Assembly (NCBI GenBank): GCA_039714095.1
Contig: JBDLJZ010000002.1
Coordinates: 1-50,173 of the forward strand
DNA length: 50,173 nucleotides
Reading direction: 5' to 3'
Source: Nanobdellota archaeon
GTDB lineage: Archaea; Nanobdellota; Nanobdellia; Pacearchaeales; GW2011-AR1
This document shows, in pieces, positions 3,508-43,923 of this stretch (position 1 is its first letter; every line of letters starts with the position of its first letter). The position numbers and the translations under genes were made by a program. The notes beneath the pieces are model-generated. The model ran no database searches. It worked only from the letters and a program-made list of their open reading frames with translations, and was not told the origin of the DNA.

Positions 3508-3654
3508 TATGCGATTTTCGTCAGATTGCACGAAAAAAATCGCCCCCCAAATGAAGGGAATGGTTAAGCCGAAGTTATTGGAAAGCGACAAAAGTCAAAC
3601 ACTAATAACGACTTTTCAATGGCTGAGCCAAAGGAAACCGCAGGTGTCCTAGCA
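3508..3654 (+). repeat. G+C-rich structured repeat, family 1, copy B (H1 + H2 + tail, abuts the rpoP ATG)
   Basis: H1 at 3511..3543 is identical to copy A. H2 is an imperfect long hairpin at 3571..3629. The tail aaaggaaaccgcaggtgtcctagca precedes ATG 3655. Confidence 0.6.
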
Positions 3655-3792
3655 ATGACAACTTACAAATGTTTCAAATGCGGGGAAAAAATAAAAAACC
3701 AAGATTTAGATAAAAGATTTGTTTGTCCACATTGCGGAAGTTTAATTTTTTTTAAATCAAGAACAAAATTAAGAACACTAAAAACAGACTAA
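3655..3792 (+). CDS. rpoP: DNA-directed RNA polymerase subunit P (Rpo12), 45 aa, below the ORF-track cutoff
   Basis: Own translation: MTTYKCFKCGEKIKNQDLDKRFVCPHCGSLIFFKSRTKLRTLKTD. CxxC..CxxC zinc ribbon. The stop overlaps the next ATG (TAATG). Matches the rpl37ae-rpoP-pfdB gene order I recall for archaea. Confidence 0.75.
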   Translation: MTTYKCFKCGEKIKNQDLDKRFVCPHCGSLIFFKSRTKLRTLKTD

Positions 3793-19751: not shown

Positions 19752-20249
19752 TTATCCATCATAACCCACCATTAATTTAACAACTTCACATTTATCATAA
19801 ACTTTTCCCTCAAATAAATCCTTCCAGCATAATGAGACGAAATTTGAATATTCTGATGTAATGTTTGAAGAATAAAGTTTTATAATATCGCAATTAGGAT
19901 AATTTCCTAAATTACACGTCAAAGGTGTTGGACTTTGTTTTCTAATTTCAATATTTGAAACTCCCCAAAAATTAACATATTTTGAAGAACTTTCTTTTAA
20001 CATCATTACTTTGTCTGCATCTACACAATTTATTCTATTAGAGCCAAATGATTCTCCACATGAAAATTCAGGTGAATTAGCAAGTCTTGAAACTAAAAGC
20101 ATTGCGTTTTTTTCTTCAAGTTCTAAAGCAGATTCTCTTAAATTTGAAGTTGATATAGTCAGTACAAACATCCCTGCCAAAACAAAAAACAAAGTAATTG
20201 CCATTAGCATAAATGCCATCTGCTGTATTTTTAATTGTCCTTTTTTCAT
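19752..20249 (-). CDS. class III signal peptide (type IV pilin-like) protein
   Basis: MKKGQ|LKIQQMAFMLMAITLFFVLAGMF. Start moved from TTG 20294 to ATG 20249 because the extension lies inside repeat copy C. Confidence 0.6.
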   Translation of the reverse strand: MKKGQLKIQQMAFMLMAITLFFVLAGMFVLTISTSNLRESALELEEKNAMLLVSRLANSPEFSCGESFGSNRINCVDADKVMMLKESSSKYVNFWGVSNIEIRKQSPTPLTCNLGNYPNCDIIKLYSSNITSEYSNFVSLCWKDLFEGKVYDKCEVVKLMVGYDG

Positions 20250-20260
20250 TTTTTTATTTT

Positions 20261-20356
20261 GAAGGGTTACGCCGAAGTTATTGGAGAGCGACAAATGTTA
20301 AAAACCAATAGCGACTTTCCAATGGCTGAGCAAAAGGAAACCGTAGGTGTCCTCGC
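20261..20356 (+). repeat. G+C-rich structured repeat, family 1, copy C (H2 + tail, + orientation between two minus-strand genes)
   Basis: gaagggttacgcc, then the H2 hairpin (20274..20331), then aaaggaaaccgtaggtgtcctcgc. The last base is shared with the stop codon of the upstream gene. Confidence 0.6.
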
Positions 20357-21282
20357 TACCATAATCTACACTGACTATTTAATTCATTATCATTAATTTT
20401 TTGTGCAATATTCCATACACTTCCAATATTAGCAGAGTCAATTAATCCATTAGCAGAATTACTTAATTGAACCAAATCATTTCCTAAATTTGAATTACAA
20501 CCTCTCTGAGAAATAAATGATTCTTTGTCTTGATAAATTTTAGATAGTTGTTTTATTCTTTTCATAATTCTTTGTAATTGACAATTATAAATTTTTTTAT
20601 CTGAAAAAATTGTAGCATACATTAATGCATCTGTTCTAAAATGCAAAATTTCTCCCTCTTTTTCAACTGTTTGTGCCCCATAATTAACTTGCACATCACA
20701 ATCTTCATAATTAAAACAAACATTTATTTTATTTGATAAATCCTCACAATCTTTTGTAAAAATATTTCCTTGGCTTAGGGTTTCTAACTCTTCTTTAATA
20801 TTTTCTGGTGCATTTAAAAAACAATAATTTTTATTTGAAGATGTTAAATAAATTAAATCTGTAACTTTAAAAGGAAATTCCAAGGGTTTTGAAAAAATGT
20901 AAAATGTTTTTCCTTCTGCATATGCTTCTGAAAAAATATATTTATTCTCAAAGCTTACTTCTACATCTGTTTGCGTCCATTTATCAAAACTTTTTTGAGA
21001 AATTTGAATTCCTTGTTTTCCAAAAACACTTAAGTTATTACATCTGTTATAAATTCTTGTTTCAGCAGGAAAAATAATTGTAGTAGTTTTTCCAACTTCA
21101 AACCCAGTCTCTAAAGGATTCAATAACACTCCGATTTCATTTGCTGTTTTAGCCCCAATAATAGTCTCTTGTGTACTAATTGTTTTTGTCACAGCATAAA
21201 TTGTTAGAGATAAAATCATTGCACCAACAATAATAGCAAAAAGCCAAGCAAAAGATATTTGTAAAAATCCTTTTTTATTCAT
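20356..21282 (-). CDS. class III signal peptide (type IV pilin-like) protein, about 308 aa
   Basis: MNKKGF|LQISFAWLFAIIVGAMILSL. Start moved from TTG 21333 to the internal ATG, which removes the overlap with the upstream gene. Confidence 0.6.
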   Translation of the reverse strand: MNKKGFLQISFAWLFAIIVGAMILSLTIYAVTKTISTQETIIGAKTANEIGVLLNPLETGFEVGKTTTIIFPAETRIYNRCNNLSVFGKQGIQISQKSFDKWTQTDVEVSFENKYIFSEAYAEGKTFYIFSKPLEFPFKVTDLIYLTSSNKNYCFLNAPENIKEELETLSQGNIFTKDCEDLSNKINVCFNYEDCDVQVNYGAQTVEKEGEILHFRTDALMYATIFSDKKIYNCQLQRIMKRIKQLSKIYQDKESFISQRGCNSNLGNDLVQLSNSANGLIDSANIGSVWNIAQKINDNELNSQCRLW

Positions 21283-21292
21283 CTTCTTAGAT

Positions 21293-21886
21293 TTATTTAA
21301 TTGTAACCAATGCTTCTCCATATTGTTTTTCAATTACAAGTTTAATTTTACCTTTTATATTTTCTACACAAAACGGATTATCTCTTAAAATTGTCTTTGC
21401 TAAATCAAGATGTTTAATCTCTTTTGAATTTAATCCTTCTGAAGACCCCCCAGGATAGAAAAACAAATTTTCATGTTCTTGATGTAATTGTTTTAATTCA
21501 CTAAAATAAATTCTATATTTCCCCCTGTCTCCTGCAGGATAAAGAGAGTAATCTGCAAAGCAAACATGACTTATTTTTGAAGGCAAAAAATATTCTTTTT
21601 CTTGAGAACTTTGGGTTCCTTTCCATGCTTTATCAATATCTGTTTGAAGATTGTTTGCAAATTTTGCAATTTGTGCTGTGTCCCCTAAATTAAGAAATTT
21701 TTTAATTGCAAAAAAAGAAAACGAAATAAAAATTATAATTAATATAATTGAAAAAATCATCCCAAAAGACAATTTCATCTGCCCTTGTTTATCACATCTT
21801 TTGCCCTTTGTAAAAATCTTCGAAGAAGATTTTTCGGGGCCTCGTAGAGGTTCTCGCACCTCCTTGGTGTACGCCTGTGGTGTCAT
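21293..21886 (-). CDS. class III signal peptide (type IV pilin-like) protein whose 5' end is occupied by repeat family 2
   Basis: ..CDKQGQ|MKLSFGMIFSIILIIIFISF. The only in-frame start upstream of the KQGQ site is the repeat's own ATG (MTPQAYTKEVREPLRGPEKSSSKIFTKGK); the next in-frame ATG is the Met immediately after KQGQ. Confidence 0.55.
   Translation of the reverse strand: MTPQAYTKEVREPLRGPEKSSSKIFTKGKRCDKQGQMKLSFGMIFSIILIIIFISFSFFAIKKFLNLGDTAQIAKFANNLQTDIDKAWKGTQSSQEKEYFLPSKISHVCFADYSLYPAGDRGKYRIYFSELKQLHQEHENLFFYPGGSSEGLNSKEIKHLDLAKTILRDNPFCVENIKGKIKLVIEKQYGEALVTIK
21802..21886 (+). repeat. G+C-rich structured repeat, family 2, copy 1
   Basis: Hairpin AAAAATCTTC-gaa-GAAGATTTTT (21812..21834), then cggggcctcgtagaggttctcgcacctccttggtgtacgcctgtggtgtcat. 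Confidence 0.65.
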
Positions 21887-21930
21887 TAATAAAAATAGAA
21901 TTTTAAACTTATAAATTTAATCAAAATTAA

Positions 21931-24354
21931 TTATAAAACTTGCTCACTACTTGGTCTTGCAATAATACTACAATCACTAGGCAGAGGAGGATTTCCAAAT
22001 TCATCTTTACATTTAACATAAAATGTTTCTTGTGAATCCCATTCAATAAAATGTTCATCTTCATCAACTGTTTGCAATTCAATACCATCCTCAAATTCAT
22101 ATCTACATCCAATGTCTTCTTGGGTGTTATAAACACACATACCTGATTCATCAGTGATTAATTTAAGATAACCATCTTCTTTATACGCTCTTATAACAAC
22201 AGGTGAGCCAATATCAGTTTCAACATCAAAAGTAATATCTTCAAATACAGCATTTCCTCCAGCATCTACACACATAATAGAATAGGCATAATTCCCGTCT
22301 GCCAAATTTAATTCTTGTGTATGTTGATAAGTCATTTCAACTGGGTTGTATAAAAATTGCACATAACTTAAAGTACCTAATGGTTTGTAAGAACAAAATG
22401 CTTTGCCATCTTCTGCACCTGAGGAAGTTTCAATTTCAAAAAGAACTTGAACAGGAGAAGTTGCATCTTTAACAGTTGTTCCATTTGGTTCTGCAAAATC
22501 AATATAAAGTGGCTGTGTTCCTATCAATGTCAATTTTGTTGATTCTTTATTTGTATTTCCACTTGTATCATTACATCTAAAATAATAATTATTTTCTTCT
22601 CTATCTTTTAATCCTGTAAGTGTTGTACTACACGGATAAACTGTTTGCGCATTTCTAACTTCAAAATTTGATGAACAGTCAAAGTCATTTTCCATTAAAT
22701 TATATCCTTTGTCTATAAAATCCCACTTACAATCTGCAGGTTCATTTATGTAAGCAGTTAAACTTGTATTACTTATATTGTATGCAACAGGAGCGTTATT
22801 AGGAATACTTGTATCAACAATTAAAGGAGCAGTAAAATCTTCTCCCTCTTCAACACAAAATTTAAAAATAAATTCTCCTGTATTTGAATTGCCGTTTGCA
22901 TCCTCGCATCTTACAAATAAACTCATATTAGTTCCTTCTTTTATTACAGGTCCTATTGCTCCTATTGAAGGTAAAATCATTGTATGTGAATGATTGTATC
23001 TTGCAAGAGAATTTGAACCAAAATAAAATGACATTTCTTCATAATTATCTTTTCTTTCAGTATCTATTTTACATGTTGCAGGTTCGTCTAAGCTAACCCC
23101 AAATTTTAATGGGGTGTATGCAGAAATACATCCTTGTTCATCACCCTGATTTTCTACTGGACGAATTATAACACCTCTATCTGGGGGTGACTGCGCATTA
23201 TCAGGAGTGTACACAAAATCTTCGTTTAATGCATCTTCCCAAGGCCTTATTTGAGGTGCTTCAGCATCGTTTCTATTAATCCATGTACAAAGTTCTTCTT
23301 CACTTCCAGGATTTAATAACTCACAACCCTTGCCCAAACTTTTACACTGATATTCACTACATCCAAAAATTTCATTATTACATTCACTGCATTTTGACCC
23401 CCCACTTGGAGCTTCCCAAACAGAACATTCAAATGTTACAGATTTGTCCTCTAAGTCTTTGTAATGATTGATAATATACCACACTGCCACTGCAAAACCT
23501 ATATAAGTGCCTGCATTTCCAGAATAACCTTTATTATATATTTTCATTATGGCATTCACAGTAGTTCCTGCTTGAATTCCTTTTTCCAACCCCTCTCCTA
23601 TTGCAACTGCTTTTTTGTCTTCTTCTCCACCCCCAGCAGCTATTATAATAGTTTTTACACCTGCCGCCAGAGTATATCCTGCCAAAAGATATTGTGCAGT
23701 ATCCATAAAACCTGCTCCTCCAACCACAGTTCCTTCATTATTCTCTAATTTTCCTAATTCTGCCTTATTTTCTACTTTTGCATCTACACCATCTTTTGTA
23801 TACATCCAATTGCCTTTATCTTTATAATAATTTTTTCCTTCGTATTCATCTCCTGATAGAGTAAAAGTTTCACTTCCTGATTTTCCAAGAAATGATTCAT
23901 ACCATGAGGGCGATGATGAACTCTCGCCTGGAGTGTCTGTTCCAGCTCCACCAGTACCTGTTTCTTGTAAAGGAGCGATAGGATAATCTCCAGGTGTTTC
24001 AAATCCTGCAGATGGTTGAGAAGGGATGTCATTAAAACTTGCGGGATTTGGAGTTCCAGAAAGACCTAAGTTTGGGTTTTGCCCTGAAGAAGAGGTTTGA
24101 GATATACCGAGTCTTCTATTTAATTCTTCTTTACCTTTTGTATTAATAGTTTTCCACCCACTCCCATCAAGTTTTTTATATTCATAAGTATTTCCAGAAT
24201 ATCTATATATGTAAGGATCGCCTGGAAAGTTGATTATATCTCCTTCTGTAGCTTCAACAACCCCTACCTCACTTCCAACAGCATAAGAAATTGCCACAAT
24301 TCCTAATAGCAAAATCATTACTTGACACACCCCAAACGTTTTCTTAATTTTCAT
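21931..24354 (-). CDS. 807-aa secreted/membrane surface protein, homologous to the C-terminal half of the 1216-aa protein
   Basis: Signal peptide MKIKKTFGVCQVMILLLGIVAISYA, two mid-protein hydrophobic helices, a Cys cluster CSVWEAPSGGSKCSECNNEIFGCSEYQCKSLGKGCE, and repeated units ending [YF]x[VFI][RK]CxDxxGN. Confidence 0.7.
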   Translation of the reverse strand: MKIKKTFGVCQVMILLLGIVAISYAVGSEVGVVEATEGDIINFPGDPYIYRYSGNTYEYKKLDGSGWKTINTKGKEELNRRLGISQTSSSGQNPNLGLSGTPNPASFNDIPSQPSAGFETPGDYPIAPLQETGTGGAGTDTPGESSSSPSWYESFLGKSGSETFTLSGDEYEGKNYYKDKGNWMYTKDGVDAKVENKAELGKLENNEGTVVGGAGFMDTAQYLLAGYTLAAGVKTIIIAAGGGEEDKKAVAIGEGLEKGIQAGTTVNAIMKIYNKGYSGNAGTYIGFAVAVWYIINHYKDLEDKSVTFECSVWEAPSGGSKCSECNNEIFGCSEYQCKSLGKGCELLNPGSEEELCTWINRNDAEAPQIRPWEDALNEDFVYTPDNAQSPPDRGVIIRPVENQGDEQGCISAYTPLKFGVSLDEPATCKIDTERKDNYEEMSFYFGSNSLARYNHSHTMILPSIGAIGPVIKEGTNMSLFVRCEDANGNSNTGEFIFKFCVEEGEDFTAPLIVDTSIPNNAPVAYNISNTSLTAYINEPADCKWDFIDKGYNLMENDFDCSSNFEVRNAQTVYPCSTTLTGLKDREENNYYFRCNDTSGNTNKESTKLTLIGTQPLYIDFAEPNGTTVKDATSPVQVLFEIETSSGAEDGKAFCSYKPLGTLSYVQFLYNPVEMTYQHTQELNLADGNYAYSIMCVDAGGNAVFEDITFDVETDIGSPVVIRAYKEDGYLKLITDESGMCVYNTQEDIGCRYEFEDGIELQTVDEDEHFIEWDSQETFYVKCKDEFGNPPLPSDCSIIARPSSEQVL

Positions 24355-24683
24355 TTTATCTTTAACATGTCTTTTATTTGTTTATCTATTTCATTTAAAT
24401 GAATCTCTTCTAAATTTCCTAATTTATTTTTGATTTTTCTATAATCAATTATTCTAAGTTGAAACACCAAAGCAATAGAATCTTCATTTAATTTATTCTC
24501 TTTAGAGCTTTTTACATTATAAGTAAAATGATATTTTAATGCAGATTTATTTGTTGTTAGAGGGATAATTGAAACAATATTAGAATTCTTTTCAGAATAA
24601 ATTATAACTGGTCTGCATCCTTGCTGTTCATGACCTTGACCAAACAAATCAACTAAATAAATATCTCCTTTAGCAAATTTCAT
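24351..24683 (-). CDS. mazF: MazF/PemK-family endoribonuclease toxin
   Basis: KGDIYLVDLFGQGHEQQGCRPVIIYS..IIPLTTN. ATGA overlaps with both the antitoxin gene upstream and the 807-aa gene downstream. Confidence 0.8.
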   Translation of the reverse strand: MKFAKGDIYLVDLFGQGHEQQGCRPVIIYSEKNSNIVSIIPLTTNKSALKYHFTYNVKSSKENKLNEDSIALVFQLRIIDYRKIKNKLGNLEEIHLNEIDKQIKDMLKIK

Positions 24684-24886
24684 AAATTTTTTTCAAAGTT
24701 TTTACAAGCTTCATCACTTAAAATCTCCCAAGCATCTAATTCTTTTTTCAATTCAATCTCATTTTTCATGCTCTCTAAATAAAAAGACATAATTGCTTTC
24801 TCTACAACTTCTCTAAAATCAAAGCCTGTTTCTTTAGTCATTGCTTTAATCTTCTCTTCTACTTCATTTGAAATATCAATTTGCAT
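24680..24886 (-). CDS. antitoxin for MazF (68 aa, family not recognised)
   Basis: Small acidic protein with a 4-nt overlap with mazF. Confidence 0.5.
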   Translation of the reverse strand: MQIDISNEVEEKIKAMTKETGFDFREVVEKAIMSFYLESMKNEIELKKELDAWEILSDEACKNFEKNL

Positions 24887-24950
24887 TGTAGTCTAAATTT
24901 TTGAAGATTTTTAAAACTTCCCTCCTTTCTAATTTTTTTAAATTTTTCAT

Positions 24951-26639
24951 CTAATCAAACCCCAAATAATTTTTAATTATATTTATTGTTTTTCTATCCG
25001 TATCTCCACTTAATTTTCCTTGGCAATCTCCCAGCGAAGCACACATTGTATTTTGTGCATCTCCCCATCCAGAAATATAATCTTTGTCCCCATCAAAACA
25101 CTCGTCTCCATCTATTTGTTTATAACCTTTTCTTTGTAAGTCATCTGCCAAACTTTTTTCATAATGAGCTGTGCAACTTGTACTGGCTAAAGAACAAATC
25201 GCAGACTCTTCTTCATTTCCTTCATTTGATTCTTTATCGGACCAAAATTTAAATCCTGGTGCAATTAAAGGAACACATTTTTTTAGAACTTCTCCATCCC
25301 CCATCTTTTCTGAAATCCACTGACAATCTCTAATTGTTGTATCCTCACAATCTAATTGTTCTGTTTGAGCAACACAATCTTGCCAAGCATTAACTCTGCA
25401 CACAGCTGACTTAAAAGTTTTTTGAATATTATTTTCATCAGTATATCTTATTTCAGATTGAATACAAACTTCTGCTTTTCTATCAGCACACGGTTCAATA
25501 GTTACTTCTCCATTATAGCAAACCATTCTAAAAAATCTACTTCCTGGGAGATTATTTTCTGTATTGTCTGATGAGCTACTTTGTTCTGAAATTTCTCCAT
25601 TTATAATTTCTAAAAAAGTTGCTCCTTTTGCAACCTCAGAACTTGCACACCATGTCTCGCCATGTAAATATGTTTCGTCATTTCCATCCCCCCCAATATC
25701 AAATTCACAACCCAAATCTCTGCAAACAAAATCCCCATATATTGGAGATACAGCGTCTTCATTTCTGTTATATTCTTTACAAGTGCTTCCCTCAAAATAA
25801 CCACAATCTCCACAAATCGCTGAACCTGCATTTCCTATTCCATCTGCACAACTAGGTGCTGTTATATATGTCCAATAAATTTTACCTTCTTCTCCATTTC
25901 GAAGTACCTGTCCTGTGCTATCATCAATCATATTTGAGTCATAAACATTCGCAACATTCCCACAACTATCTAAAAAGAAAACCTCATCTCTTCCATCTAC
26001 GCAAGTTGTTTTATCAGTTTCAGCACAATTTGTAGCAAGTTCATCTGCAGTACATAAAAATCCCTCGTGAAAGATAGCTTCACTAATTGCTTGGCATTCT
26101 GAACGAGTTATCATTTTGCAAGTTGTTTCTAACTCTCTTTCAAATACACACGCTCCTTTTGTATCTGGAAATGCACTCGCAATACAAGAAATTTCATTTT
26201 GAATATTTTGTTGAAAATGAGTATCTATTGAATACAAAGAAGCAAAACTTTTACATTTGGCTTGTGTTACAAAAGCTGCTTGGTCTCCAATCGCACAACA
26301 ACCTAACTGACACTGAGGAATATTTACAGAACTACTTTCACTCCAATAACCCATTTCTGAGTCACATTTTAATTGAGGAGTATTTTCCATACATTCACCA
26401 TCTCTTTTGTTTACACATGTTCCAAGAGCACAATAAGAAGTAGAAATACAGGCAGTAGGTTCCATTAAATAATTACTATCACATTCATTTTTATTAGCAT
26501 CAACACACCACGCTCCACCAGTTCCTTCATTATTTGGCTCTGTTTTTTCACAACAATAAGAAATTTCTCCAAGCACACTGTTAGTTAAAAGAATTCCAAT
26601 TAAGAAAATTATTCCAAACATAAAAAAATTATTTTTCAT
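24951..26639 (-). CDS. 562-aa cysteine-rich secreted protein, homologous to the N-terminal half of the 1216-aa protein
   Basis: Signal peptide MKNNFFMFGIIFLIGILLTNSVLG. YCCEKTEP.., CQLGCCAIGDQAAF.., ..SLGDCQG are collinear with TCCEKTTE.., CTLGCCQDLGT.., ..SLGDCAG of 28898..32548. Confidence 0.7.
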   Translation of the reverse strand: MKNNFFMFGIIFLIGILLTNSVLGEISYCCEKTEPNNEGTGGAWCVDANKNECDSNYLMEPTACISTSYCALGTCVNKRDGECMENTPQLKCDSEMGYWSESSSVNIPQCQLGCCAIGDQAAFVTQAKCKSFASLYSIDTHFQQNIQNEISCIASAFPDTKGACVFERELETTCKMITRSECQAISEAIFHEGFLCTADELATNCAETDKTTCVDGRDEVFFLDSCGNVANVYDSNMIDDSTGQVLRNGEEGKIYWTYITAPSCADGIGNAGSAICGDCGYFEGSTCKEYNRNEDAVSPIYGDFVCRDLGCEFDIGGDGNDETYLHGETWCASSEVAKGATFLEIINGEISEQSSSSDNTENNLPGSRFFRMVCYNGEVTIEPCADRKAEVCIQSEIRYTDENNIQKTFKSAVCRVNAWQDCVAQTEQLDCEDTTIRDCQWISEKMGDGEVLKKCVPLIAPGFKFWSDKESNEGNEEESAICSLASTSCTAHYEKSLADDLQRKGYKQIDGDECFDGDKDYISGWGDAQNTMCASLGDCQGKLSGDTDRKTINIIKNYLGFD

Positions 26640-26640
26640 T

Positions 26641-26955
26641 TTATTCTATAATCACCCCCTCTTTTAATGCTTCACTAACTATGCTTATTCTATTTTTCTT
26701 TTTTTCAAATTCTTCAGGAGTATAACAAAGAAAATCAACAGCATAATCTAAATTCCAATAATTATTCATTTTTTTAACCCTTTCAAAAAAATTCATTTTT
26801 TCAAAATCTGGGGCCACAACAATTAGATCAATATCACTATCTTCTGTTGCTTCTCCAGTTGCCTGACTTCCAAATAAAATAATTTTTTGCAAACTAATTT
26901 CATTTACATGCAACATAAAATGTTTAATGAGTCTTATAATTTTTTCTTTACCCAT
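26641..26955 (-). CDS. minimal nucleotidyltransferase (MNT), antitoxin of a HEPN-MNT pair
   Basis: LFGSQATGEATEDSDIDLIVV (GSx9-11 DxD NTase motif). Confidence 0.85.
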   Translation of the reverse strand: MGKEKIIRLIKHFMLHVNEISLQKIILFGSQATGEATEDSDIDLIVVAPDFEKMNFFERVKKMNNYWNLDYAVDFLCYTPEEFEKKKNRISIVSEALKEGVIIE

Positions 26956-27293
26956 TCTAATATTTCTTCTGCATGTTTAATTAAATTATTAATATCCTCT
27001 TTTAAATTTAACTTTCCTTCCGTATCTGGATATCTACTAAACATATACGCAGGATTTAATTCATTACAAAAATTTTGAATATTTTCTGGAGCATTAATAT
27101 CTTTTGAGAGATTTAATAGATTATGCGTCTTAACTAATTTTTTTTGTTCTTTAATTAAAACAGCTTTCAAAGCTTTTTCAGCAGACTGTTGCAATAAAAA
27201 AGCACCTATTTCCAAATAGCCTCCACTAATACTATGTTTAGCACCCTCTAAATCTTTCTCTGCATATTCTATCCATTCTTTATATTCTTTCAT
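26934..27293 (-). CDS. HEPN-domain protein (toxin of the HEPN-MNT pair)
   Basis: 119-aa helical protein. A..FLLQQSAEKALKA..H.L and ..YMFSRYPD.. are HEPN (PF05168-like) patterns. Adjacent to MNT. Confidence 0.8.
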   Translation of the reverse strand: MKEYKEWIEYAEKDLEGAKHSISGGYLEIGAFLLQQSAEKALKAVLIKEQKKLVKTHNLLNLSKDINAPENIQNFCNELNPAYMFSRYPDTEGKLNLKEDINNLIKHAEEILEWVKKKL

Positions 27294-28168
27294 TCTCTAA
27301 TCGCTCCTGATGTAATCCCATAACCTGAAGGCCAAATATAACTACGCGAGGCAAACTGAAATTTCTCTCCAGTGTCTCTGTTAGTTAAAATATAAATTGT
27401 TGTTCCATCTCCTTGTTTTTTCTTTTCAACTTTTAAATCATGATAAAAATTCATATAAGTTGTTGTCTCGCTGTCTCCATATTTTGCTTCAAAATTTAAT
27501 ATACTAATTGCAATGCTAACTAATTCATAAAGATTATTATTCAAAACTATACTAAAGTCCTTGTATCTTTCTGAATCTTCTTTTGTTAATGTTAAAGTGT
27601 GATTAAAATTAGCAACAACTCTTTCAGGAAATAATCTAATTCCCATTTTTCCTAAATTAAGTTTTACATCATAACCTTTTCTTTCGTAACTTTTTTTCAT
27701 TTCTTCAAAACATTCTCTGGATGATTCAGCAATACTGTTTTCTAATTCTTCTTCAATGTGTTGTCTTAAAAACGGTTGTTGCATAACACAAGGTTCATAA
27801 TAATTTGATGTATAACATAAATATTCTAATTTCCCTCCCCCATATAAAAAATAATGTTCAGGATTCAAACTCCCACCATTTGCAGAAATAATACCAATAT
27901 TTTCTTGTATCTGTTCTTCAAGACATAATTGAATAAATTCTGTCGGACTTTTTGCACCAATTCCTAATGTTGTTTGCAACTGAGGATAAAACATATAAAT
28001 AGCAACACCAATCCCAACAATTACAATTGATAAAATAATAAACAATGTAACCTGCCCCTTGTAAACATCTTTGGAAAAGATGTTTCGGGGCCTCGTAGAG
28101 GTTCTCGCACATCCTTGGTGTACACTAAAATATGTGTGTCCTTTTTTGTTTGAATTTTTCTCACCCAT
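27290..28168 (-). CDS. class III signal peptide protein (292 aa), paralog of 32533..33309, with repeat family 2 inserted in its leader
   Basis: ..VYKGQ|VTLFIILSIVIVGIGVAIYMF. EFIQLCLEEQIQENIGIISANGGSLNPE aligns with SFLESCIEEKINEAIDLIAIQGGNIKPE of the 258-aa paralog. Confidence 0.6.
   Translation of the reverse strand: MGEKNSNKKGHTYFSVHQGCARTSTRPRNIFSKDVYKGQVTLFIILSIVIVGIGVAIYMFYPQLQTTLGIGAKSPTEFIQLCLEEQIQENIGIISANGGSLNPEHYFLYGGGKLEYLCYTSNYYEPCVMQQPFLRQHIEEELENSIAESSRECFEEMKKSYERKGYDVKLNLGKMGIRLFPERVVANFNHTLTLTKEDSERYKDFSIVLNNNLYELVSIAISILNFEAKYGDSETTTYMNFYHDLKVEKKKQGDGTTIYILTNRDTGEKFQFASRSYIWPSGYGITSGAIRE
28053..28125 (+). repeat. G+C-rich structured repeat, family 2, copy 3
   Basis: Hairpin AAACATCTTT-gga-AAAGATGTTT (28063..28085), then cggggcctcgtagaggttctcgcacatccttggtgtacac. 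Confidence 0.65.
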
Positions 28169-28247
28169 TTTATATTTTCTCTAAGGGATTTTCGTTTATA
28201 AATATTTTTAATAAAATATGAAACCAGATATCTGATAGCTAATATTT

Positions 28248-28538
28248 TCAGGTTATTTTGGAAAGATATTTTTCTAAATCTTTATAATCTTTTTTTCTAT
28301 CTAAAAGACAAACAAGAATTATTTTTTGTGTAACAATATATATCATTCGAGTTTCTTTTGATTGAATTTTAAGTCTAATTCTAAAAACTTTTGAAAATGA
28401 TTTTGAATAAATTTTTTTATATCTAAATGGATTTTCTTTTATTAGTTGTATTTTATCAGAAATAATCTTTTTTGATTTTTCATCAACTTTTTCTAATTGC
28501 CGAAGAAATGTTTTTGAAGGGATTATTTGGAAATTCAT
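28248..28538 (-). CDS. RelE-like toxin
   Basis: 96 aa. ..FSKVFRIRLKIQSKETRMIYIVTQKIILVCLLDRKKDY. 4-nt overlap with the upstream small gene. Confidence 0.55.
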   Translation of the reverse strand: MNFQIIPSKTFLRQLEKVDEKSKKIISDKIQLIKENPFRYKKIYSKSFSKVFRIRLKIQSKETRMIYIVTQKIILVCLLDRKKDYKDLEKYLSKIT

Positions 28539-28792
28539 CCCAAGAGAATTTTATTTAATTCTTCTTCTGTCCCAAAATCTTTATTTTTTATTGTTTTTAA
28601 AATTAAGTTATCAATTAAATCAATTTCTTTTTCACTAAATGTTTCATCAAATTCATTTGCTTCAAATACTTTCATTCTCATACTTTCTATAGCTAAATCC
28701 TGAATATTTCTGTAACCAAAATTTTCTGCATAATTTTGAGCTGCTTTTAATAAATTCAATGGAATTTTCAGATTAATTTGTTGAGTCTCCAT
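28535..28792 (-). CDS. antitoxin (possible ribbon-helix-helix)
   Basis: QQINLKIPLNLLKAAQNYAENFGYRNIQDLAIESM resembles an RHH strand-helix-helix. Confidence 0.45.
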   Translation of the reverse strand: METQQINLKIPLNLLKAAQNYAENFGYRNIQDLAIESMRMKVFEANEFDETFSEKEIDLIDNLILKTIKNKDFGTEEELNKILLG

Positions 28793-28872
28793 AATATTAA
28801 TAGATATCTATAGATATTTAAACTTTTTGGAAATTCAAAGATAGAGAATAATATTTTTAATAAAAAATAACA

Positions 28873-28905
28873 CTACGCGATTTTTGTCAGAGGCAATTTA
28901 AAAAG
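28873..28905 (+). repeat. fragment related to family 1 (5' half of H1 joined to aggcaatttaaaaa as at the 3' end of copy D)
   Basis: ctacgcgatttttgtcag matches copy A's ctacgcgattttcgtcag at 17 of 18 positions. Overlaps the stop of the 1216-aa gene. Confidence 0.35.
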
Positions 28906-31900
28906 CACTTGGAGAAATTGAAACACATGTTCCAACATTTTCAAGATTATCCTTACACTTAATATAATATGTTTTTTCAGAATTCCATTCAACATAATGC
29001 TCAATTGTTGCTTCAAATCCAGGCTCCATTAATGTTGTAGTATTCATCTCAAAATTGCATTTTTTCAAAATATCATTGTTATAATAACATCTTGATTTTT
29101 TATGCGTTTCAATTCCAAGTAAACTCCCTGAACGATATATAACCGCAATCTCTGGTGAGGTGTTGTCAATTTCTAAAGTGAATACAATACTCTCCTCAGC
29201 CACATTTCCTGTAGAATCTTCACACATAATTGGAATATTATAATCTCCACTTACAAAAAATAAATTTTGAGTATGCATTGTTGTATCAGTATCAAAAAAT
29301 TCTAATTGAGGGTCTAAATCTGAACTTAATAAATCTCCCGAAGGAAAATAACATTTTGCAATACCCGTACCGTCGGCTCCACCAGATGTTGTAACTCTTA
29401 AAGTCATTTCATAATCTCCTGTAGCACTGCTCACCTGATTATATTCTGTAGGTGTGGCAGAAGTAATTTTTAATGTGCTAATAGAAGGATTTATTGTGTA
29501 TTCTTTGTAAGCTATATTTACATTTCCTTGAGTATCATTACATTTGAAATAAAGTTTATTTGGATCACTCGTACTAAGTCCAGTAATATCTGCAAAGTCG
29601 CAACCATATTTTAATCTTGGAAAACAAGAATCATCATCACGAATATATCCTTCACAAAACAAAGATTTAGTCATATCTTCATAATTTGTTGTTTCATCAA
29701 AACTATAACCACATTCAACTAAAGGCTCATTAGCATAAATTTTAGGGCTGTCTAAAGTATCATTTCCAAATATTAAATAACTTCCATCTTCTGGAGAAAA
29801 TTCCTTAATAATTGGAGGACGAATATCTGGAGTTGGATTTACACACATCTGAATATTGTATGCAGTTAATTGTGCGTTTCCTTCGTGTCCTTCACATCTA
29901 ACATAAACATTAAATTCTCCATCTTCACCAAGACAATTATCACTAAAAGAAGCAACTCTAATTTCAAAATTATTTTCTTTTGTCCAAACAAATCCCGAAG
30001 TTGGCCTGCCAATCCAATCTGTTTTATATGATGTCAAATCTGATGGAGCAGTTCCCCAGATACATCTTGCAAATTTGTTTTCTTCATCCTTATCAGTTGT
30101 TAAATTAAAATTTAATAAAGTATTTCCTTCAACACACCCATTCTCATTTGAATTATTTGTGATTATTATTCCTGTTTCAAGTGCACCATTAGATTGGATC
30201 GTTGTTGTTAAATCTCCAGAAAAACTGCCCACATTAAAATTAATAACTGGTGGCGTAGGGTCAAGTTCTTTTTTAACACAAATAACTTCATCTGTTGCAA
30301 CACCTTCTTCTTCAACTAATACTTCACAATTTTTCCCTAAGCTCCAACATTTATATTCTGTGCAAGGGAATTCTCCTTCATTACATTTATCACACTCCTG
30401 ACTTCTTGCAGGAGGTTCCCACGGCTCACACGAAAAACTAACTTCTGACTTTTCTAATTTTCCAATTTTATCACCTTGTTGCCAATTAAATACAACTAGT
30501 TCTATTATGGCTGCAACTATTGTTACAATATAATTAGCATAAATTCCTATTAATCCTCCAACCTGATTTACCTGTCTAAATTTAAGTAAACCTCTACTTC
30601 CTTCATCAAGAGTTTCTTCGCATACTTGTTCTCCTTCTATTTCAACACATTCAATTTCTCCTAATTGGCTATTAATCAGGTTTAGAATAGTAGAACTTGA
30701 AGAACCTAAACTTGAAGCTAAATTTGCAAAGGTAGGAGAATTATTTTCTTCAGGAGTATTATTTATCCTAACATATCTCTCTTTTAAACTATCTTTTCCA
30801 GTATAATTTCCAACAGTATTAACATAACCTGCACAATCTCCCAAACTCACACAAAAATCATTCATCTGACTATAAAATCTCTCTGGATTTTTATCACACT
30901 CTTTATTTGCAATATAATCTAAATAAACTCTTTCTAAAATAAGACACCCCCATATAGGTTCCCAAGCAACACATTTTGCTTTGTATTGTTGAATAATTGG
31001 ACAAGACATTGATGCAAAGCTACAAACACTTTCATCATCTTCTGCTGAATAAATTGGGTTAAATCCTTGAGGATATTTTGGAACACAAACATCAAATTTA
31101 AAAAAATCAACTTCATCATCTTTTACAACATTTATATTTTGCATTCTACAATCTGACTCATCTTCACAATCTTCTACATTCTCTATTCCAAAACAATTTA
31201 ATCCCATATTTGGTCTGCATGTTGCTTCAGTGTAAGAAATAGCACTTTCTCCTTCTCCGATTTCAACAGCATGCTCTCCACAAATATTCTCTCTATAAAC
31301 TCCGCAATTAATTGTTGTTATCTCTCCTTGAATACATGATTTTCTATAATGAGAAGAGCCAGGAATATCTGAAGAAATTTGAACTCCAGTTTCATCATTA
31401 ATATATTCTCCAACCTGTCCTTCATAAACACACCAACTCTCTCCATTTTTCCTCTCTTTATTATTATCTGTTTCATCCACACAGCTTAAATCTGCACAAA
31501 CAAAATTATCCTCTGCAACATGAGTTTCTGAACTATCAACTGGTTTACATGTATTAAATACACTATCACAATTTCCGCATGTATCTAAATTATTTGGATT
31601 ATTTACATCAATTGTGCAAACTTGCGAACCTACTATTTTTACAAATCCTTGATTCCAACTTTCATCTTTTAATGCAGGAGTATTTCCTTCATAAACATTT
31701 TCCATATTTCCACAAGAATCAAACCAATAAATTTTTTCATCTAAACAATTAATACTCTCTTGTTTAGTACAAATTGTGTCTAATCCTTCATTAGAACATA
31801 AACTTCCTTCATGAAAAGTCCTACTTTCTATACATTCTGCCCCACTATTAAATTCACAATTATTTTCTCCATTTACTTGATAAACACAAGCACCATTTGC

Positions 31901-32548
31901 ATCTGATGAAATATCTCCACATAGTTCTTCAGGTATTGTATCATCAAAAATTCCACCTTGCAAATCACACCAAGCTTGCGAATTGTATTGTGTATTTGTT
32001 CCTAAATCCTGACAACAACCAAGAGTACATTCATCTGCTTCATTAAACCATTCTCCATTATTTTCTTCACAAGTAATTCTAGGAGATAGGGCAGAGCATA
32101 AACCATCTGTACCAATACAATCTCCCAATTTACAAAATGTTGTTGAACCACAATCTGATTGCACATTTGTAGTATCACAATCCTCTTGCAATACATCTTC
32201 TTGACAAAATGCTCCTTCTGTTGTTTTCTCACAGCAAGTTGTCGCCGAAACAAAACCAATTTGATTTATTGATAAAAATCCAACTACTAAGTTTAAACTT
32301 GACTTAATTATTTTTTTAGAAATTTCACTTATCTCTGAATTAATTTTTATTTCTTCACTATTAAGATTATAACTTTGAGCAATAGTAAAATTAATTAGTA
32401 AAATTATTTGAAATATACTAAAAATTAAAATTATTTTTCTGCCCTCAGTAAAAATTTTTGCAGAAGATTTTTCGGGGCCTCGAAGAGGTTCTTGTGCTGG
32501 GAGCTTTAGCGAGGCAGTATACGCCTGTGGTGTCATCCTATAATACAC
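28898..32548 (-). CDS. 1216-aa giant cysteine-rich surface protein (a fused equivalent of the 562-aa + 807-aa pair)
   Basis: The N-terminal half is collinear with 24951..26639 and the C-terminal half with 21931..24354 (FSCEPWEPPARSQECDKCNEGEFPCTEYKCWSLGKNCE). The track start is GTG 32548. ATG 32536 (MTPQAY) overlaps the upstream stop as ATGA and may be the real start. Confidence 0.75.
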   Translation of the reverse strand: MYYRMTPQAYTASLKLPAQEPLRGPEKSSAKIFTEGRKIILIFSIFQIILLINFTIAQSYNLNSEEIKINSEISEISKKIIKSSLNLVVGFLSINQIGFVSATTCCEKTTEGAFCQEDVLQEDCDTTNVQSDCGSTTFCKLGDCIGTDGLCSALSPRITCEENNGEWFNEADECTLGCCQDLGTNTQYNSQAWCDLQGGIFDDTIPEELCGDISSDANGACVYQVNGENNCEFNSGAECIESRTFHEGSLCSNEGLDTICTKQESINCLDEKIYWFDSCGNMENVYEGNTPALKDESWNQGFVKIVGSQVCTIDVNNPNNLDTCGNCDSVFNTCKPVDSSETHVAEDNFVCADLSCVDETDNNKERKNGESWCVYEGQVGEYINDETGVQISSDIPGSSHYRKSCIQGEITTINCGVYRENICGEHAVEIGEGESAISYTEATCRPNMGLNCFGIENVEDCEDESDCRMQNINVVKDDEVDFFKFDVCVPKYPQGFNPIYSAEDDESVCSFASMSCPIIQQYKAKCVAWEPIWGCLILERVYLDYIANKECDKNPERFYSQMNDFCVSLGDCAGYVNTVGNYTGKDSLKERYVRINNTPEENNSPTFANLASSLGSSSSTILNLINSQLGEIECVEIEGEQVCEETLDEGSRGLLKFRQVNQVGGLIGIYANYIVTIVAAIIELVVFNWQQGDKIGKLEKSEVSFSCEPWEPPARSQECDKCNEGEFPCTEYKCWSLGKNCEVLVEEEGVATDEVICVKKELDPTPPVINFNVGSFSGDLTTTIQSNGALETGIIITNNSNENGCVEGNTLLNFNLTTDKDEENKFARCIWGTAPSDLTSYKTDWIGRPTSGFVWTKENNFEIRVASFSDNCLGEDGEFNVYVRCEGHEGNAQLTAYNIQMCVNPTPDIRPPIIKEFSPEDGSYLIFGNDTLDSPKIYANEPLVECGYSFDETTNYEDMTKSLFCEGYIRDDDSCFPRLKYGCDFADITGLSTSDPNKLYFKCNDTQGNVNIAYKEYTINPSISTLKITSATPTEYNQVSSATGDYEMTLRVTTSGGADGTGIAKCYFPSGDLLSSDLDPQLEFFDTDTTMHTQNLFFVSGDYNIPIMCEDSTGNVAEESIVFTLEIDNTSPEIAVIYRSGSLLGIETHKKSRCYYNNDILKKCNFEMNTTTLMEPGFEATIEHYVEWNSEKTYYIKCKDNLENVGTCVSISPSAF
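32440..32536 (+). repeat. G+C-rich structured repeat, family 2, copy 2 (diverged middle)
   Basis: tgccctcagtAAAAATTTTtgcagAAGATTTTTcggggcctcgaagaggttc...acgcctgtggtgtcat. Confidence 0.6.
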
Positions 32549-34119: not shown

Positions 34120-34316
34120 CTATGCGATCTTCGTTGGATTGCACAAGAAAAATCTCCCATCGCAAAGGGCAGAGAAAACGAGCGATTTCATTTGCACTAT
34201 CTACGAAGTGTCGTAAGCAAATGGGGTCAGGAGCCAAAAAAAACTAGCTTAGGTGAGCAATTACACTTGCATCAAATTCCAAAGGCAATTTAAAAAAATC
34301 GCAAGCGTGATTGGGA
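34120..34316 (+). ncRNA. G+C-rich structured intergenic element (diverged family-1 copy D), candidate small RNA of unknown class
   Basis: Begins ctatgcgatcttcgttggattgcac (H1 5' half) and ends ggcaatttaaaaaaatcgc (H1 3' half). Internal hairpin CATTTGC-actatc-TACGA-agtg-TCGTA-a-GCAAATG at 34189..34223. Confidence 0.35.
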
Positions 34317-37117: not shown

Positions 37118-37753
37118 GTGGTTTTTATGCCTAAAGAATGGATATTGAACACTGCAATGAATAGATTCCAATTAAATTTTAAAAGAAATGTTGGGGCCAC
37201 TTCTGAAAGCATAAGAAAGTGCTCTCCTAAAACTCTTAAAAAATGGGAAGAATATTATTATACAGAAGTTAAACCAAAAGAACACATAAATAGTTTAGGT
37301 AAAATATTATTCCAAAAAATAAAAGATATTGTTAAAAAAGAGCTTGGTGAAATAACAGAGAAAGATTGTATAGATTATATGCACAATCTTGTTATAAATA
37401 GAACTTATGATGGTTATAATACAGAAGTTTCTATGATTAAAAGCATATTAAGCAATGAATTAAATATTAATATTGAAGAATCTCCAGACGAATGGGATAG
37501 ATTATTTAATATTGATTTTTTTATAAAAGCTAAAGATAAATTTATTGGATTACAAATTAAACCTACTGGCTCAGAAAGTTCTTTTCAAGTCCAGAAAGAG
37601 AAAAGACAACAATTAGAAACCCACGAAAAATTTACTAAGAAATATGGGGGAAAAGTTTTTTATGTTTATTCAATAAAAAAAGGGGATAAAAAAATTTTGG
37701 CTAATCCCGAAGTAATTGAAGAGATAAAAGAAGAAATAAAAAAACTTTCTTAA
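37118..37753 (+). CDS. putative type II restriction endonuclease (PD-(D/E)xK-like, possibly MjaI-like)
   Basis: Convergent with the methyltransferase, with a 4-nt overlap. Candidate catalytic segment is DEWDRLFNIDFFIKAKDKFIGLQIKP. The family assignment is from memory only. Confidence 0.45.
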   Translation: MVFMPKEWILNTAMNRFQLNFKRNVGATSESIRKCSPKTLKKWEEYYYTEVKPKEHINSLGKILFQKIKDIVKKELGEITEKDCIDYMHNLVINRTYDGYNTEVSMIKSILSNELNINIEESPDEWDRLFNIDFFIKAKDKFIGLQIKPTGSESSFQVQKEKRQQLETHEKFTKKYGGKVFYVYSIKKGDKKILANPEVIEEIKEEIKKLS

Positions 37754-43308: not shown

Positions 43309-43923
43309 TTACAAAAACTTGCTACCATATTTTTCCTTAAAATCAATATATTCAATTCCCCCTCTTTTGCCCTTTGTAGACATTTCCTTAGAAATGTCTC
43401 GGGGCACGCTCTTGGGTGTTCCTCCTTTTTTTGCAATCCAAATTTTAGAAAAAATATTGTTCTTTAAGTACCACGCACATTTTTCTTTTTCAATTTTAGA
43501 AAGAATTCCATTCATTTTAACTTCAACACCAATAACACTATATGATTCTTCATGAATGTGTTTAATAGAAATAAAATCAGGAAAACCTGCCCCAAGCATC
43601 ATAGCTTTAGAAAAAGGGTTAAATTTCTTTTTTGCAATAATTAATTTTCCATATTCAGGCTCACCAGAGTCATCCCTTGGGGATAAATCAACATTATTAT
43701 TCCATTTATCAATAATTCTTCCTTTGTTTTCTAAATCTCTTCTAACTTTTAATTCAAATCTTGATGCTTGTCCTTTAATTCTTTTCCCTTTTTTAACATT
43801 AGATTTTTTCTTTGAAGTAGAAAAAACCCCTGCTTTATTCCAAGAAGTTTCATATTCTTCACTCCCTGCTTTTTCAATCATCTCAATAATTTTTTCTTTA
43901 TTTTCTTTTTTTATTCTTTTCAT
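43309..43923 (-). CDS. PD-(D/E)xK nuclease, Hjc-like (possible Holliday junction resolvase) with a basic N-terminal extension
   Basis: Ordered E ... D ... ExK candidates: SRFELKVRRDLENKG, GFPDFISI, IGVEVKMNG. Confidence 0.5.
   Translation of the reverse strand: MKRIKKENKEKIIEMIEKAGSEEYETSWNKAGVFSTSKKKSNVKKGKRIKGQASRFELKVRRDLENKGRIIDKWNNNVDLSPRDDSGEPEYGKLIIAKKKFNPFSKAMMLGAGFPDFISIKHIHEESYSVIGVEVKMNGILSKIEKEKCAWYLKNNIFSKIWIAKKGGTPKSVPRDISKEMSTKGKRGGIEYIDFKEKYGSKFL

Follow-up and report, generated by a model that had tools for sequence, protein, structure and literature searches.

Small in-frame structured repeats, probably mobile, in protein-coding genes of DPANN archaea

Four copies of a structured repeat in host genes

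The window analysed here is a stretch of 50,173 nucleotides from a Nanobdellota archaeon. Four of its genes carry a copy of a short structured repeat, the element, whose four hairpins are named H1 to H4. Host genes, copies and H4 hairpins are as follows.

21293..21886, minus strand: host gene A, pilin-like, 197 aa
27290..28168, minus strand: host gene B, pilin-like, 292 aa
28898..32536, minus strand: host gene C, large Cys-rich secreted protein, 1212 aa
43309..43923, minus strand: host gene D, conserved DPANN protein of unknown function, 204 aa
21803..21883, minus strand: copy A, full-length 81-nt element (ACACC...GGGC), covariance model score 100.5 bits
28054..28137, minus strand: copy B, 84-nt element with enlarged H1 loop, covariance model score 83.7 bits
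32441..32533, minus strand: copy C, 93-nt variant with an H2 loop 12 nt larger and a degenerate H4, 69.6 bits
43369..43419, minus strand: copy D, 51-nt short form with H1 joined directly to CCCCGA-H4-TAC..GGGC, 43.6 bits
21812..21834, minus strand: H4 of copy A, 10-bp stem AAAAATCTTC/GAAGATTTTT, 3-nt loop
28063..28085, minus strand: H4 of copy B, 10-bp stem AAACATCTTT/AAAGATGTTT, both differences from copy A compensated
32450..32472, minus strand: H4 of copy C, 9-bp stem, 89% complementary
43378..43399, minus strand: H4 of copy D, GACATTTC / GAAATGTC, 4-nt loop

A first-pass annotation had described three copies, which we recover as A, B and C, all on the minus strand in sense orientation; it missed copy D, and a covariance-model scan of the window with filters off returns exactly these four. 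The core GGGGCCTCG[T/A]AGAGGTTCT has three matches in the window at ≤1 mismatch, with none expected from 100 shuffles. The identities reported earlier, 25/25 (between the copies at 21802 and 28053) and 12/12, hold; we also confirm the two hairpins of 10 bp whose differences are compensated, and the 9-bp stem that includes a single T-G pair. The labels of the second and third copies had been swapped relative to coordinate order; it is the copy at 28053-28125 that has the AAACATCTTT hairpin and is read in the VHQGCARTS frame. The window copies are mutually 72-90% identical, and there is thus no sign of very recent activity of the element in this genome.

Copy A lies directly after the ATG (21884-21886) of host gene A and is read as TPQAYTKEVREPLRGPEKSSSKIFTKG; with the element taken out, the leader reads MKRCDKQGQ|MKLSFGMIFSIILIIIF. 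Copy B lies in the leader of host gene B in a frame other than that of copy A (..VHQGCARTSTRPRNIFSKDVYKG) and is followed by Q|VTLFIIL. Homologues without the element begin MGEKNF..NKKGQ|(V/L)TLFIIL, and leaders in this family are hypervariable, at ~10-38 aa with or without the element, which sits upstream of an invariant Q (Q39) and of a hydrophobic start that is likewise conserved (KGQ|VTLFII). As had been proposed, gene B carries its insert in frame; it measures 84 nt (28 codons) rather than about 87. An archaeal class III signal peptide comprises a short charged leader, G|Q (or G|F) and a hydrophobic stretch, and this prepilin-like pattern is found in host genes A and B (KGQ|VTLFIILSIVIV and QGQ|MKLSFGMIFSIIL); we identified no prepilin peptidase gene in the window. 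The earlier placement of the gene B element in the leader stands in that it precedes KGQ|VTLFII within the hypervariable part, and it fits tolerance through predicted removal of the leader.

Copy C lies directly after the ATG (32534-32536) of host gene C, which overlaps the upstream gene's stop; this ATGA overlap at 32533-32536 had been noticed before, under the label of copy 2, and belongs to the copy at 32440-32536. The orthologue of gene C in the sequence L097 lacks the element and starts MKNKNILILFSLFQIFLLMNFAFAQS. Copy D is in frame near the 3′ end of host gene D and encodes TPKSVPRDISKEMSTKG; homologues of gene D are mostly ~178 aa and lack the insert. The primase gene of the window carries an intein.

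Anatomy and covariation of the element

The element starts with a purine followed by CACC and ends with GGGGC, and the next base is always A. Its full form is 81 nt (27 codons), which is the modal length, its short form is 51 nt, and tandem units are 54 nt. Each element has four local hairpins: H1 (CACC-loop-GGTG), then H2, H3 and H4, the last a variable 8-10-bp hairpin within a conserved GCCCC/GGGGC clamp stem. Predicted folds show internal hairpins only.

H4 covaries very strongly. Its pairing is 95%, double changes occur at 8 of 10 pairs, and the observed scores were reached by none of 500 shuffles, which bears out the earlier suggestion, put forward for a covariation check, of compensatory changes in the hairpin. 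We count 16 or more distinct stems, with covariation almost purely Watson-Crick and hardly any G.U pairs. Orthologous sites in different species carry differing, yet perfectly paired H4 stems, which could reflect selection on structure after insertion, not only repeated insertion. Where pairing departs from Watson-Crick, the mRNA strand shows A.C, equivalent to G.U on its complement, three times as often as G.U; in H4 of copy C the pair is T-G on the plus strand, corresponding to C-A in the mRNA. Folding energies are also predicted to favour the complement over the mRNA strand (-16.2 vs -13.5 kcal/mol).

We found no terminal inverted repeats in the element, only the internal H4 hairpin, and no target-site duplication beyond an ambiguous single A in the comparison of the empty and filled sites of copy D. 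No Rfam covariance model matched at gathering score (best E-value on the element 3.5), which answers an Rfam check that the first-pass annotation had proposed. The three frame peptides have no match in Pfam or NCBIfam even at E≤10, the phages and plasmids searched contain no related element, and we found no description of it in the searchable literature.

The annotation had also likened part of the repeat to a Shine-Dalgarno sequence and, on the other strand, to the 3′ end of 16S rRNA. The string AAGGAGGTG is indeed present in the copy at 21802, where it is merely the H2 loop and 3′ arm. It is replaced by CAAAGGGCA and AAGGGGCAC in a large subfamily, and in window copies B and C, and thus lacks the conservation of a functional feature; the resemblance appears to be incidental.

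Distribution, reading frames and empty sites

Exact matches to the 20-21-nt core are present in the genomes of 12 DPANN species (Pace-, Woese- and Nanoarchaeota) and in ~35 low-GC metagenome contigs. Across 431 kb of DPANN and low-GC metagenome DNA, the covariance model detected 68 copies, of which 65 are non-redundant. A sense ORF of ≥300 nt spans 52 of the 65, an antisense ORF spans one, and 12 are terminal, intergenic or truncated. The ratio of sense to antisense, 52:1, compares with 3:1 expected from stop codons alone (P ~4e-5). Host genes are unrelated, encoding pilin-like proteins, a probable tRNA synthetase and proteins of unknown function. The earlier picture of an element bound to one locus and to 5′ ends does not hold, since hosts are found in many DPANN genomes and about half of the 52 ORF-embedded copies are interior, including the one in the probable tRNA-synthetase gene, with 7 near C-termini. 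A start bias is nevertheless seen in part: about a third of copies lie ≤~30 codons from the gene start, some of them in pilin-like leaders predicted to be cleavable.

Frames 0, 1 and 2 are used about equally (17, 15 and 18 times). That ORFs traverse the copies in different frames, and that conservation is at the level of nucleotides or structure and not of the peptide, had been concluded from the window; both are correct, and the use of all three sense frames holds both inside the window and beyond it. Twenty-two copies are 81 nt long, and another nine beta-type copies with a leading G were scored as 80. The clearly bounded length variants, at 51, 54, 84, 93, 99, 111, 114 and 141 nt, are all multiples of three. 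The 81-nt copy of the window has no stop in any of the three sense frames, which only 1% of shuffles match, and its three frame peptides are hydrophilic and basic (GRAVY -0.9 to -1.6). With no stop in any frame and a length divisible by three, the host ORF is kept whatever the phase of insertion.

We observe precise absence of the element in orthologues, which gives back the conserved protein sequence. In a syntenic relative, Ga0392328_0000011, the positions of copies C and D are precisely empty, and one site that is empty in the window is filled. Copy D aligns with an exact 51-nt gap in the orthologue L094, with insertion into GGAGAA^AAAAGAGG. In the gene D family, the insert is missing from most homologues, filled alleles alternate with empty ones among close relatives, and decayed, shortened copies are still in frame. 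A tandem triple copy in L097 makes a 78-aa leader. Judged by sequence comparison, these empty and filled orthologous sites show a mobile element, a reading absent from the first-pass annotation.

Nature of the element and comparison with known systems

We consider it likely that the copies belong to a family of mobile elements, small and non-autonomous, that is confined to DPANN archaea (Pace-, Woese- and Nanoarchaeota) and adapted to protein-coding sequence. The element inserts into unrelated genes in sense orientation, and the host is predicted to read it as an extra segment of 17-33 residues. Copies would persist where this segment is harmless, such as after start codons, near C-termini, probably in surface loops, and in leader peptides that probably undergo cleavage, as in the pilin-like proteins of the window locus. 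The hairpins, H4 above all, may be the structure recognised by a mobilising enzyme acting in trans, probably on single-stranded DNA; because no transposase or mobilising gene was identified, we infer the transposition mechanism entirely. A bolder and still speculative version would have the hairpins selected after insertion, rather than simply passed down from different master copies, and acting on the complement of the mRNA, in a class of frame-neutral coding-sequence transposons not described before, with a hairpin-specific enzyme, probably using single-stranded DNA, that leave no duplication, excise precisely and re-use hot spots such as pilin leaders.

The sense bias is not obviously predicted by purely selfish DNA and leaves an mRNA-level function conceivable. 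The repeat could instead be a cis-acting mRNA structure, protein-binding or modulating stability, localisation or translation, that is kept by selection on the host transcript and not by mobility. Such a structure would fit the bias, the enrichment of copies just after start codons, the compensated H4 differences between orthologous copies, and the high sequence conservation between species that share only 60-75% identity in their orthologous proteins. However, the hosts are functionally unrelated, positions in genes are scattered, and close relatives have clean empty alleles without obvious compensation. The excess of A.C over G.U and the better folding of the complement argue that mRNA is not the folding strand, and H4 nearly lacks G.U, which RNA-level selection would not usually produce. 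We therefore regard this explanation as improbable.

Removal or skipping of the insert before the protein is made, through a new small intron (for example, one that the archaeal splicing endonuclease cuts) or through translational bypass of the 'byp' type, is more improbable still. Essential genes are among the carriers, the insert is G+C-rich within AT-rich coding sequence, and its precise absence in orthologues restores a conserved protein, all as such removal would have it. Yet removal at the RNA level needs neither lengths divisible by three, nor open frames, nor in-frame internal indels, all of which are seen; decayed and shortened copies remain in frame, the host ORF of one copy (L027) terminates at a stop codon within the H4 loop, and there is no Rfam intron or ribozyme match. 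A bulge-helix-bulge intron was rejected: the exon sequences that flank one copy bear no relation to those of another, so that such a motif across the junctions cannot be a feature of the family, and the folds show internal hairpins only. A conserved leader or linker peptide duplicated among paralogous genes of the pilus-like locus, as the MTPQAYT..EPLRGPEKSS.KIFT.G shared by copies A and C at the N-termini of two genes might indicate, is effectively refuted by the equal use of three frames and scarcely credible given nucleotide identity above what peptide conservation needs, unrelated hosts in many species, and peptide searches that return almost nothing and no Pfam or NCBIfam match.

To our knowledge, essentially all known cases of selfish DNA translated in frame come from Rickettsia. 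The DPANN element would be a second, unrelated and apparently more refined case in another reduced, host-dependent lineage, with three open frames, a length divisible by three and hydrophilic peptides, which suggests convergent evolution of coding-sequence parasites where intergenic space is scarce. For annotation, such inserts inflate and diversify DPANN proteins, move predicted starts and create spurious similarity between unrelated proteins; in one case, the gene caller began a pilin-like gene downstream of the 78-aa leader made by the element. The strictly Watson-Crick, highly covarying hairpin provides a concrete handle for finding the mobilising enzyme, and accumulation in pilin-like leaders provides a natural test of the maximal length of archaeal prepilin leaders.

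Our best reading, by analogy, is that the element works like the Rickettsia palindromic elements (RPEs), though unrelated to them. Both are short multi-copy structured repeats lying in frame in unrelated genes, including essential ones, of reduced-genome, host-dependent organisms; both are translated as extra peptide segments (here predicted), are present or absent among orthologues and do not encode the mobilising gene. The hosts are archaeal (DPANN) rather than alphaproteobacterial, the element is 81 or 51 nt long vs ~100-150 bp, it has several local hairpins in place of one long palindrome and, unlike RPEs, a strong sense-orientation bias. NCBIfam holds RPE domain models; membership in the Rickettsia families proper was rejected, as the element's peptides show no sequence or peptide similarity (NCBIfam and Pfam, E≤10). 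RPEs, described as 'selfish DNA in protein-coding genes', have one conserved encoded peptide per family (PMC10969869), whereas the DPANN element uses all three frames.

In other element families, some copies are intragenic and give in-frame fusions (PMC10969869, PMC2759123). A survey covering archaea and bacteria places ~89-90% of MITEs between genes (PMC11602168), whereas the DPANN element is overwhelmingly intragenic. It resembles classical MITEs (Correia, ERIC/RU and Sulfolobus SM elements) in being small, non-autonomous, multi-copy and foldable; having neither terminal inverted repeats nor target-site duplication, it was rejected as one.

REP and IS200-IS605-derived elements, which are mobilised by HUH/Y1 enzymes, have structure-conserved hairpins, no inverted terminal repeats and no duplication. 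The DPANN element is similar in all these respects, its hairpins being conserved in structure and not in sequence; additionally, a short conserved motif (GTA, complementary strand) adjoins its stem, its clean empty sites are compatible with precise excision, and its better-folding strand looks DNA-like. These relatives in form are extragenic, unlike the DPANN element, whose left end also mismatches the geometry of IS608, with H1 beginning at nucleotide 1-2. No Y1 (HUH) transposase or RAYT gene was found among the window ORFs scanned.

Finally, inteins and mitochondrial 'byp' elements are likewise selfish insertions in coding sequence that leave the host protein functional, byp elements being G+C-rich inserts in an AT-rich yeast mitochondrial genome. 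Unlike inteins, the element has no splicing domain and is too short for one; with an uninterrupted frame and a length divisible by three, it has no need to be removed.

Copies in the window and in other DPANN genomes

The G+C-rich hairpin element (family 2) forms a single repeat family by repeat search, with two further copies that are 90% and 72% identical to the first over 71 nt. The first-pass annotation had placed these three copies at coordinates that we confirm in the sequence, and the sequence identities, hairpins, reading frames and ATGA overlap it described all hold, once its interchanged labels for copies 2 and 3 are put right. Its count was short by one, as a shorter fourth copy was overlooked. 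A covariance model run with filters off finds exactly four copies in the window, all on the minus strand, which is the sense strand of the host genes:

21803-21883, minus, copy A, in pilin-like gene A (21293-21886)
28054-28137, minus, copy B, in pilin-like gene B (27290-28168)
32441-32533, minus, copy C, in gene C for a secreted protein (28898-32536)
43369-43419, minus, copy D (short form), in gene D, conserved in DPANN (43309-43923)

The elements have a G+C content of 44-56% compared with 29% for the window, and a 19-nt core occurs three times in the window at ≤1 mismatch and never in 100 shuffles.

We scanned one genome per species (GTDB) with a 20-nt core and obtained 12 matches in AT-rich MAGs labelled Pacearchaeota, Woesearchaeota, Nanoarchaeota or "archaeon", together with unrelated matches, chance or other, in high-G+C bacteria. 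A metagenome scan added ~35 further low-G+C contigs. In the 431 kb of DPANN DNA so gathered, covariance model R1 identifies 68 copies, 65 of them non-redundant. The element family is real and widespread, and apparently undescribed so far: Rfam holds no family matching the element, Pfam and NCBIfam none matching its peptides, and no such DPANN element is described in the literature as we covered it, incompletely but including reviews and surveys of prokaryotic MITEs, which leaves novelty unproven. Using phmmer with the 30-aa frame-1 peptide against 1.84 billion representatives yielded three weak matches, and a query joining the peptides of all three frames got past the word filter for a single protein; neither result says anything of abundance. 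Phage and plasmid collections and IMG/VR viral contigs contained no copy, and nothing thus points to a virus or plasmid as its vector.

Anatomy and covariation of the hairpins

In sense orientation the element starts with a purine followed by CACC and ends in GGGGC, after which the next nucleotide is always A. Between these ends lie, in order:

H1: CACC, a 3-4-nt loop, GGTG
H2: CACC-AAGGA-GGTG, or UACCC-AAA-GGGCA in a second subfamily
H3: CCTC-TNC-GAGG
Clamp and H4: GCCCC/GGGGC enclosing the variable 8-10-bp hairpin H4, then invariant TAC

The modal length is 81 nt (22 copies), and nine beta-type copies scored as 80 nt carry a leading G. In the 51-nt short form H1 is joined straight to the clamp. 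These two lengths, the clearly bounded variants (84, 93, 99, 111, 114 and 141 nt) and the 54-nt tandem units at locus L097 of a relative are all multiples of three. Copy A (81 nt) has no stop codon in any of its three sense frames, a property matched by only 1% of shuffles, and has stops in two of its three antisense frames; its three sense peptides are hydrophilic and basic (GRAVY -0.9 to -1.6).

We found no terminal inverted repeats in the element and no feature supporting IS608-like end geometry, an integron attC-like single hairpin, a DGR template/variable repeat, a CRISPR repeat, or a tRNA or rRNA fragment. A kink-turn was rejected: in the internal loop that separates H4 from the outer stem, the 5′ strand always has GA, but the 3′ strand reads UAC then AA, UA or UG, not GA. 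The Shine-Dalgarno-like string AAGGAGGTG, highlighted in the first-pass annotation, is missing from a large subfamily and has no suitably spaced start codon after it, and we discard it both as a functional feature and as an internal start.

The best-supported feature of the element is H4, which is 95% paired both in 37 and in 62 distinct copies. Both sides have changed in 8 of its 10 pairs, the alignment contains at least 16 different stems, and the observed covariation was reached in none of 500 shuffles, bearing out the compensatory changes proposed earlier. Sliding the partners by 1-3 columns lowers pairing to 33-55%. One H2 pair switches between C:G and U:A; H3 and the clamp hardly vary, so they say nothing about covariation. 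G.U pairs are nearly absent from H4 (5 of ~580 cells). Across all helices, A.C cells on the sense strand, which are G.U on the complement, are three times commoner than G.U (90 vs 28), and the consensus energy is -16.2 kcal/mol for the complement vs -13.5 kcal/mol for the sense strand. Because three polymorphic positions dominate the cell counts, folding of the complement of the mRNA is only hinted at.

Empty and filled sites in the locus

Over the whole locus, the window is syntenic with a 253-kb contig of a close relative (JGI Ga0392328_0000011, loci L094 and L097). In this relative's gene D (L094) the 51 nt ACACCC...GGGC, and no more, are missing at GGAGAA^AAAAGAGG, and the site shows no duplication. 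The gene C orthologue is also without the element and starts ATG AAA AAT.. (MKNKNILILF..); the window's 93-nt copy therefore lies directly 3′ of the host ATG. For a 325-aa pilin-like gene (window 20356-21333) it is the window that is empty and the relative that carries a 51-nt copy, right after the ATG, and the orthologues of genes A and B have short forms in their leaders. At L097 16676-16890, the orthologue of window 19752-20294 is preceded by one 93-nt and two 54-nt tandem units that form an open 78-aa leader before KGQ|LKIQQMAF; the gene caller placed this gene's start at a downstream Met (16908).

Most of the 1121 homologues of protein D are ~178 aa and without the insert, and among the nearest relatives alleles with the insert are interspersed with empty ones; there are two insertion hot spots. 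The same gene D site holds a short form in L100 and L099, a full 81 nt in L046, and nothing in L094. Three empty/filled pairs are compatible with a one-nt target duplication; in the general set the preceding A or G mismatches the invariant following A, and such a duplication was rejected. At D site 2 the H4 stems differ but are all perfectly paired (GACATTTC/GAAATGTC, GATTTTTC/GAAAAATC, GATATTTC/GAAATATC). Between the window and L097, the copy in the B leader has changed at two pairs and that in the A leader at three, each time as a compensated double change. Such differences at orthologous sites could have arisen if copies were inserted or replaced repeatedly at hot spots, through gene conversion, or because the hairpin came under selection once inserted.

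Further features of the window are:

2085-2172, 3510-3657, 20261-20356 and 34120-34300, plus, second G+C-rich repeat family, a hairpin with a common 3′ block
24351-24886, 26641-27293 and 28248-28792, minus, small two-gene modules between pilus-locus genes
24951-26639 and 21931-24354, genes for secreted Cys-rich proteins of 562 and 807 aa, in the same locus as gene C

The second repeat family, presumably "family 1" of the first-pass annotation, has a long hairpin (GCGATTTTCGT..ACGAAAAAAATCGC) and the 3′ block AAGGAAACCGTAGGTGTCCTCGC, and has no match in Rfam. Two copies stop 1-2 nt short of an ATG, which in one case (2171) opens the gene for ribosomal protein L11, and one copy lies antisense between two pilin-like genes, where L097 has the tandem family-2 elements. 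Gene D carries a second in-frame insert of 27 nt relative to its L094 orthologue (43651-43683, minus; ..CCCCAAGGGATGACTCTGGTGAGCC.., peptide SPRDDSGEPEY); other homologues have longer G+C-rich inserts there (e.g. GAPLGVPQGGARTSSPSRSERRPQSTE), making this a hot spot for several insert families. The basic Pro/Arg/Ser-rich tail (..RRPPRRPSTPASAQRRIIQGRTSPPRRALVKRPSK..) at the C-terminus of a 604-aa protein (40700-40930, plus) may be another G+C-rich in-frame insert. The DNA primase gene (34373-37042, plus; 889 aa) contains an intein with a LAGLIDADG domain, and the syntenic relative's orthologue is 438 aa. Genes for an MjaI-type restriction endonuclease and an N6/N4 DNA methylase adjoin it (37118-38790) and are not apparent at the corresponding place in L094/L097. 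The two-gene modules encode PemK/MazF and a partner, a nucleotidyltransferase and HEPN, and one further pair; in L097 the neighbouring locus genes abut directly without them. Paralogues of the 562-aa protein and of the 807-aa protein seem to be fused in gene C (~1212 aa), and the pilus locus appears partly duplicated.

Coding context and comparison with known elements

A sense ORF of ≥300 nt, often several kb, spans the whole copy in 52 of the 65 non-redundant copies, and an antisense ORF does so in one; the other 12 sit at ORF ends, are intergenic or are cut by a contig end. Of the 52 copies in sense ORFs, 17 lie within ~30 codons of where the open frame begins, 7 lie ≤20 codons from its end, and the remainder are internal. 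One internal copy (L085, L089) is probably in a glutamyl-tRNA synthetase gene, judging from the flanking sequence, and appears to occupy a loop region. The sole antisense copy (L015 3455-3530, in a 2673-nt ORF) has lost H4, and the ORF runs through it in the one antisense frame that is open. The annotated signals of structure rather than peptide, compensated stems and a tolerated leader were right; the repeat is, however, a genome-wide mobile element dwelling in coding sequence instead of a 5′ feature specific to this locus.

Six locus genes encode a short charged leader, then G|Q (or G|F) and a hydrophobic stretch, which we take to be the archaeal class III (prepilin-like) signal peptide pattern. 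Among B homologues the Q and the start of the hydrophobic stretch vary little or not at all, and leader length ranges from ~10 to 38 residues both with and without the element, which fits the earlier proposal that insertion into a putatively cleaved leader would cost nothing. Between the element and the signal-peptide core, gene C offers no other start codon, which implies that the element is translated there; the conserved MGEK N-terminus implies the same for gene B. For gene A, translation from a downstream ATG (MKLSFG..), excluding the element, is possible. The AlphaFold2 model of protein D is poor (mean pLDDT 52.5) and puts the insert in a low-confidence stretch between two predicted strands, weakly supporting a loop position; a PDB sequence search with protein D found nothing.

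Together these observations fit a mobile element, non-autonomous and translated, whose construction makes it frame-neutral. The main rival is a role at the mRNA level, since the 52:1 sense to antisense ratio far exceeds the 3:1 expected from stop codons alone (P ~4e-5). Against such a role, the complementary strand folds better and H4 is strictly Watson-Crick, which point to DNA-level structure. Removal as an intron, or skipping by bypass, is contradicted by lengths that are multiples of three, by internal indels that stay in frame, and by a host stop codon inside H4 in L027. A peptide module is contradicted by frame usage: all three sense frames occur, with counts of 17, 15 and 18, and one DNA sequence is read as ..AYTKEVREPLRGPEK.., ..GVHQGGARTSTRPRK.. 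or ..RTPRRCENLYEAPKN...

The translated mobile element that we favor is not a classical MITE, because it has neither inverted repeats nor a duplication. It shares features with systems of hairpin-dependent single-strand transposition (REP/RAYT, IS200/IS605), which we regard as resemblances. In its mode of working it would act as Rickettsia palindromic elements do, in frame and translated (PMC10969869). It has no homology to those families and its architecture is unlike theirs, and whereas they use one frame, the element described here uses all three.
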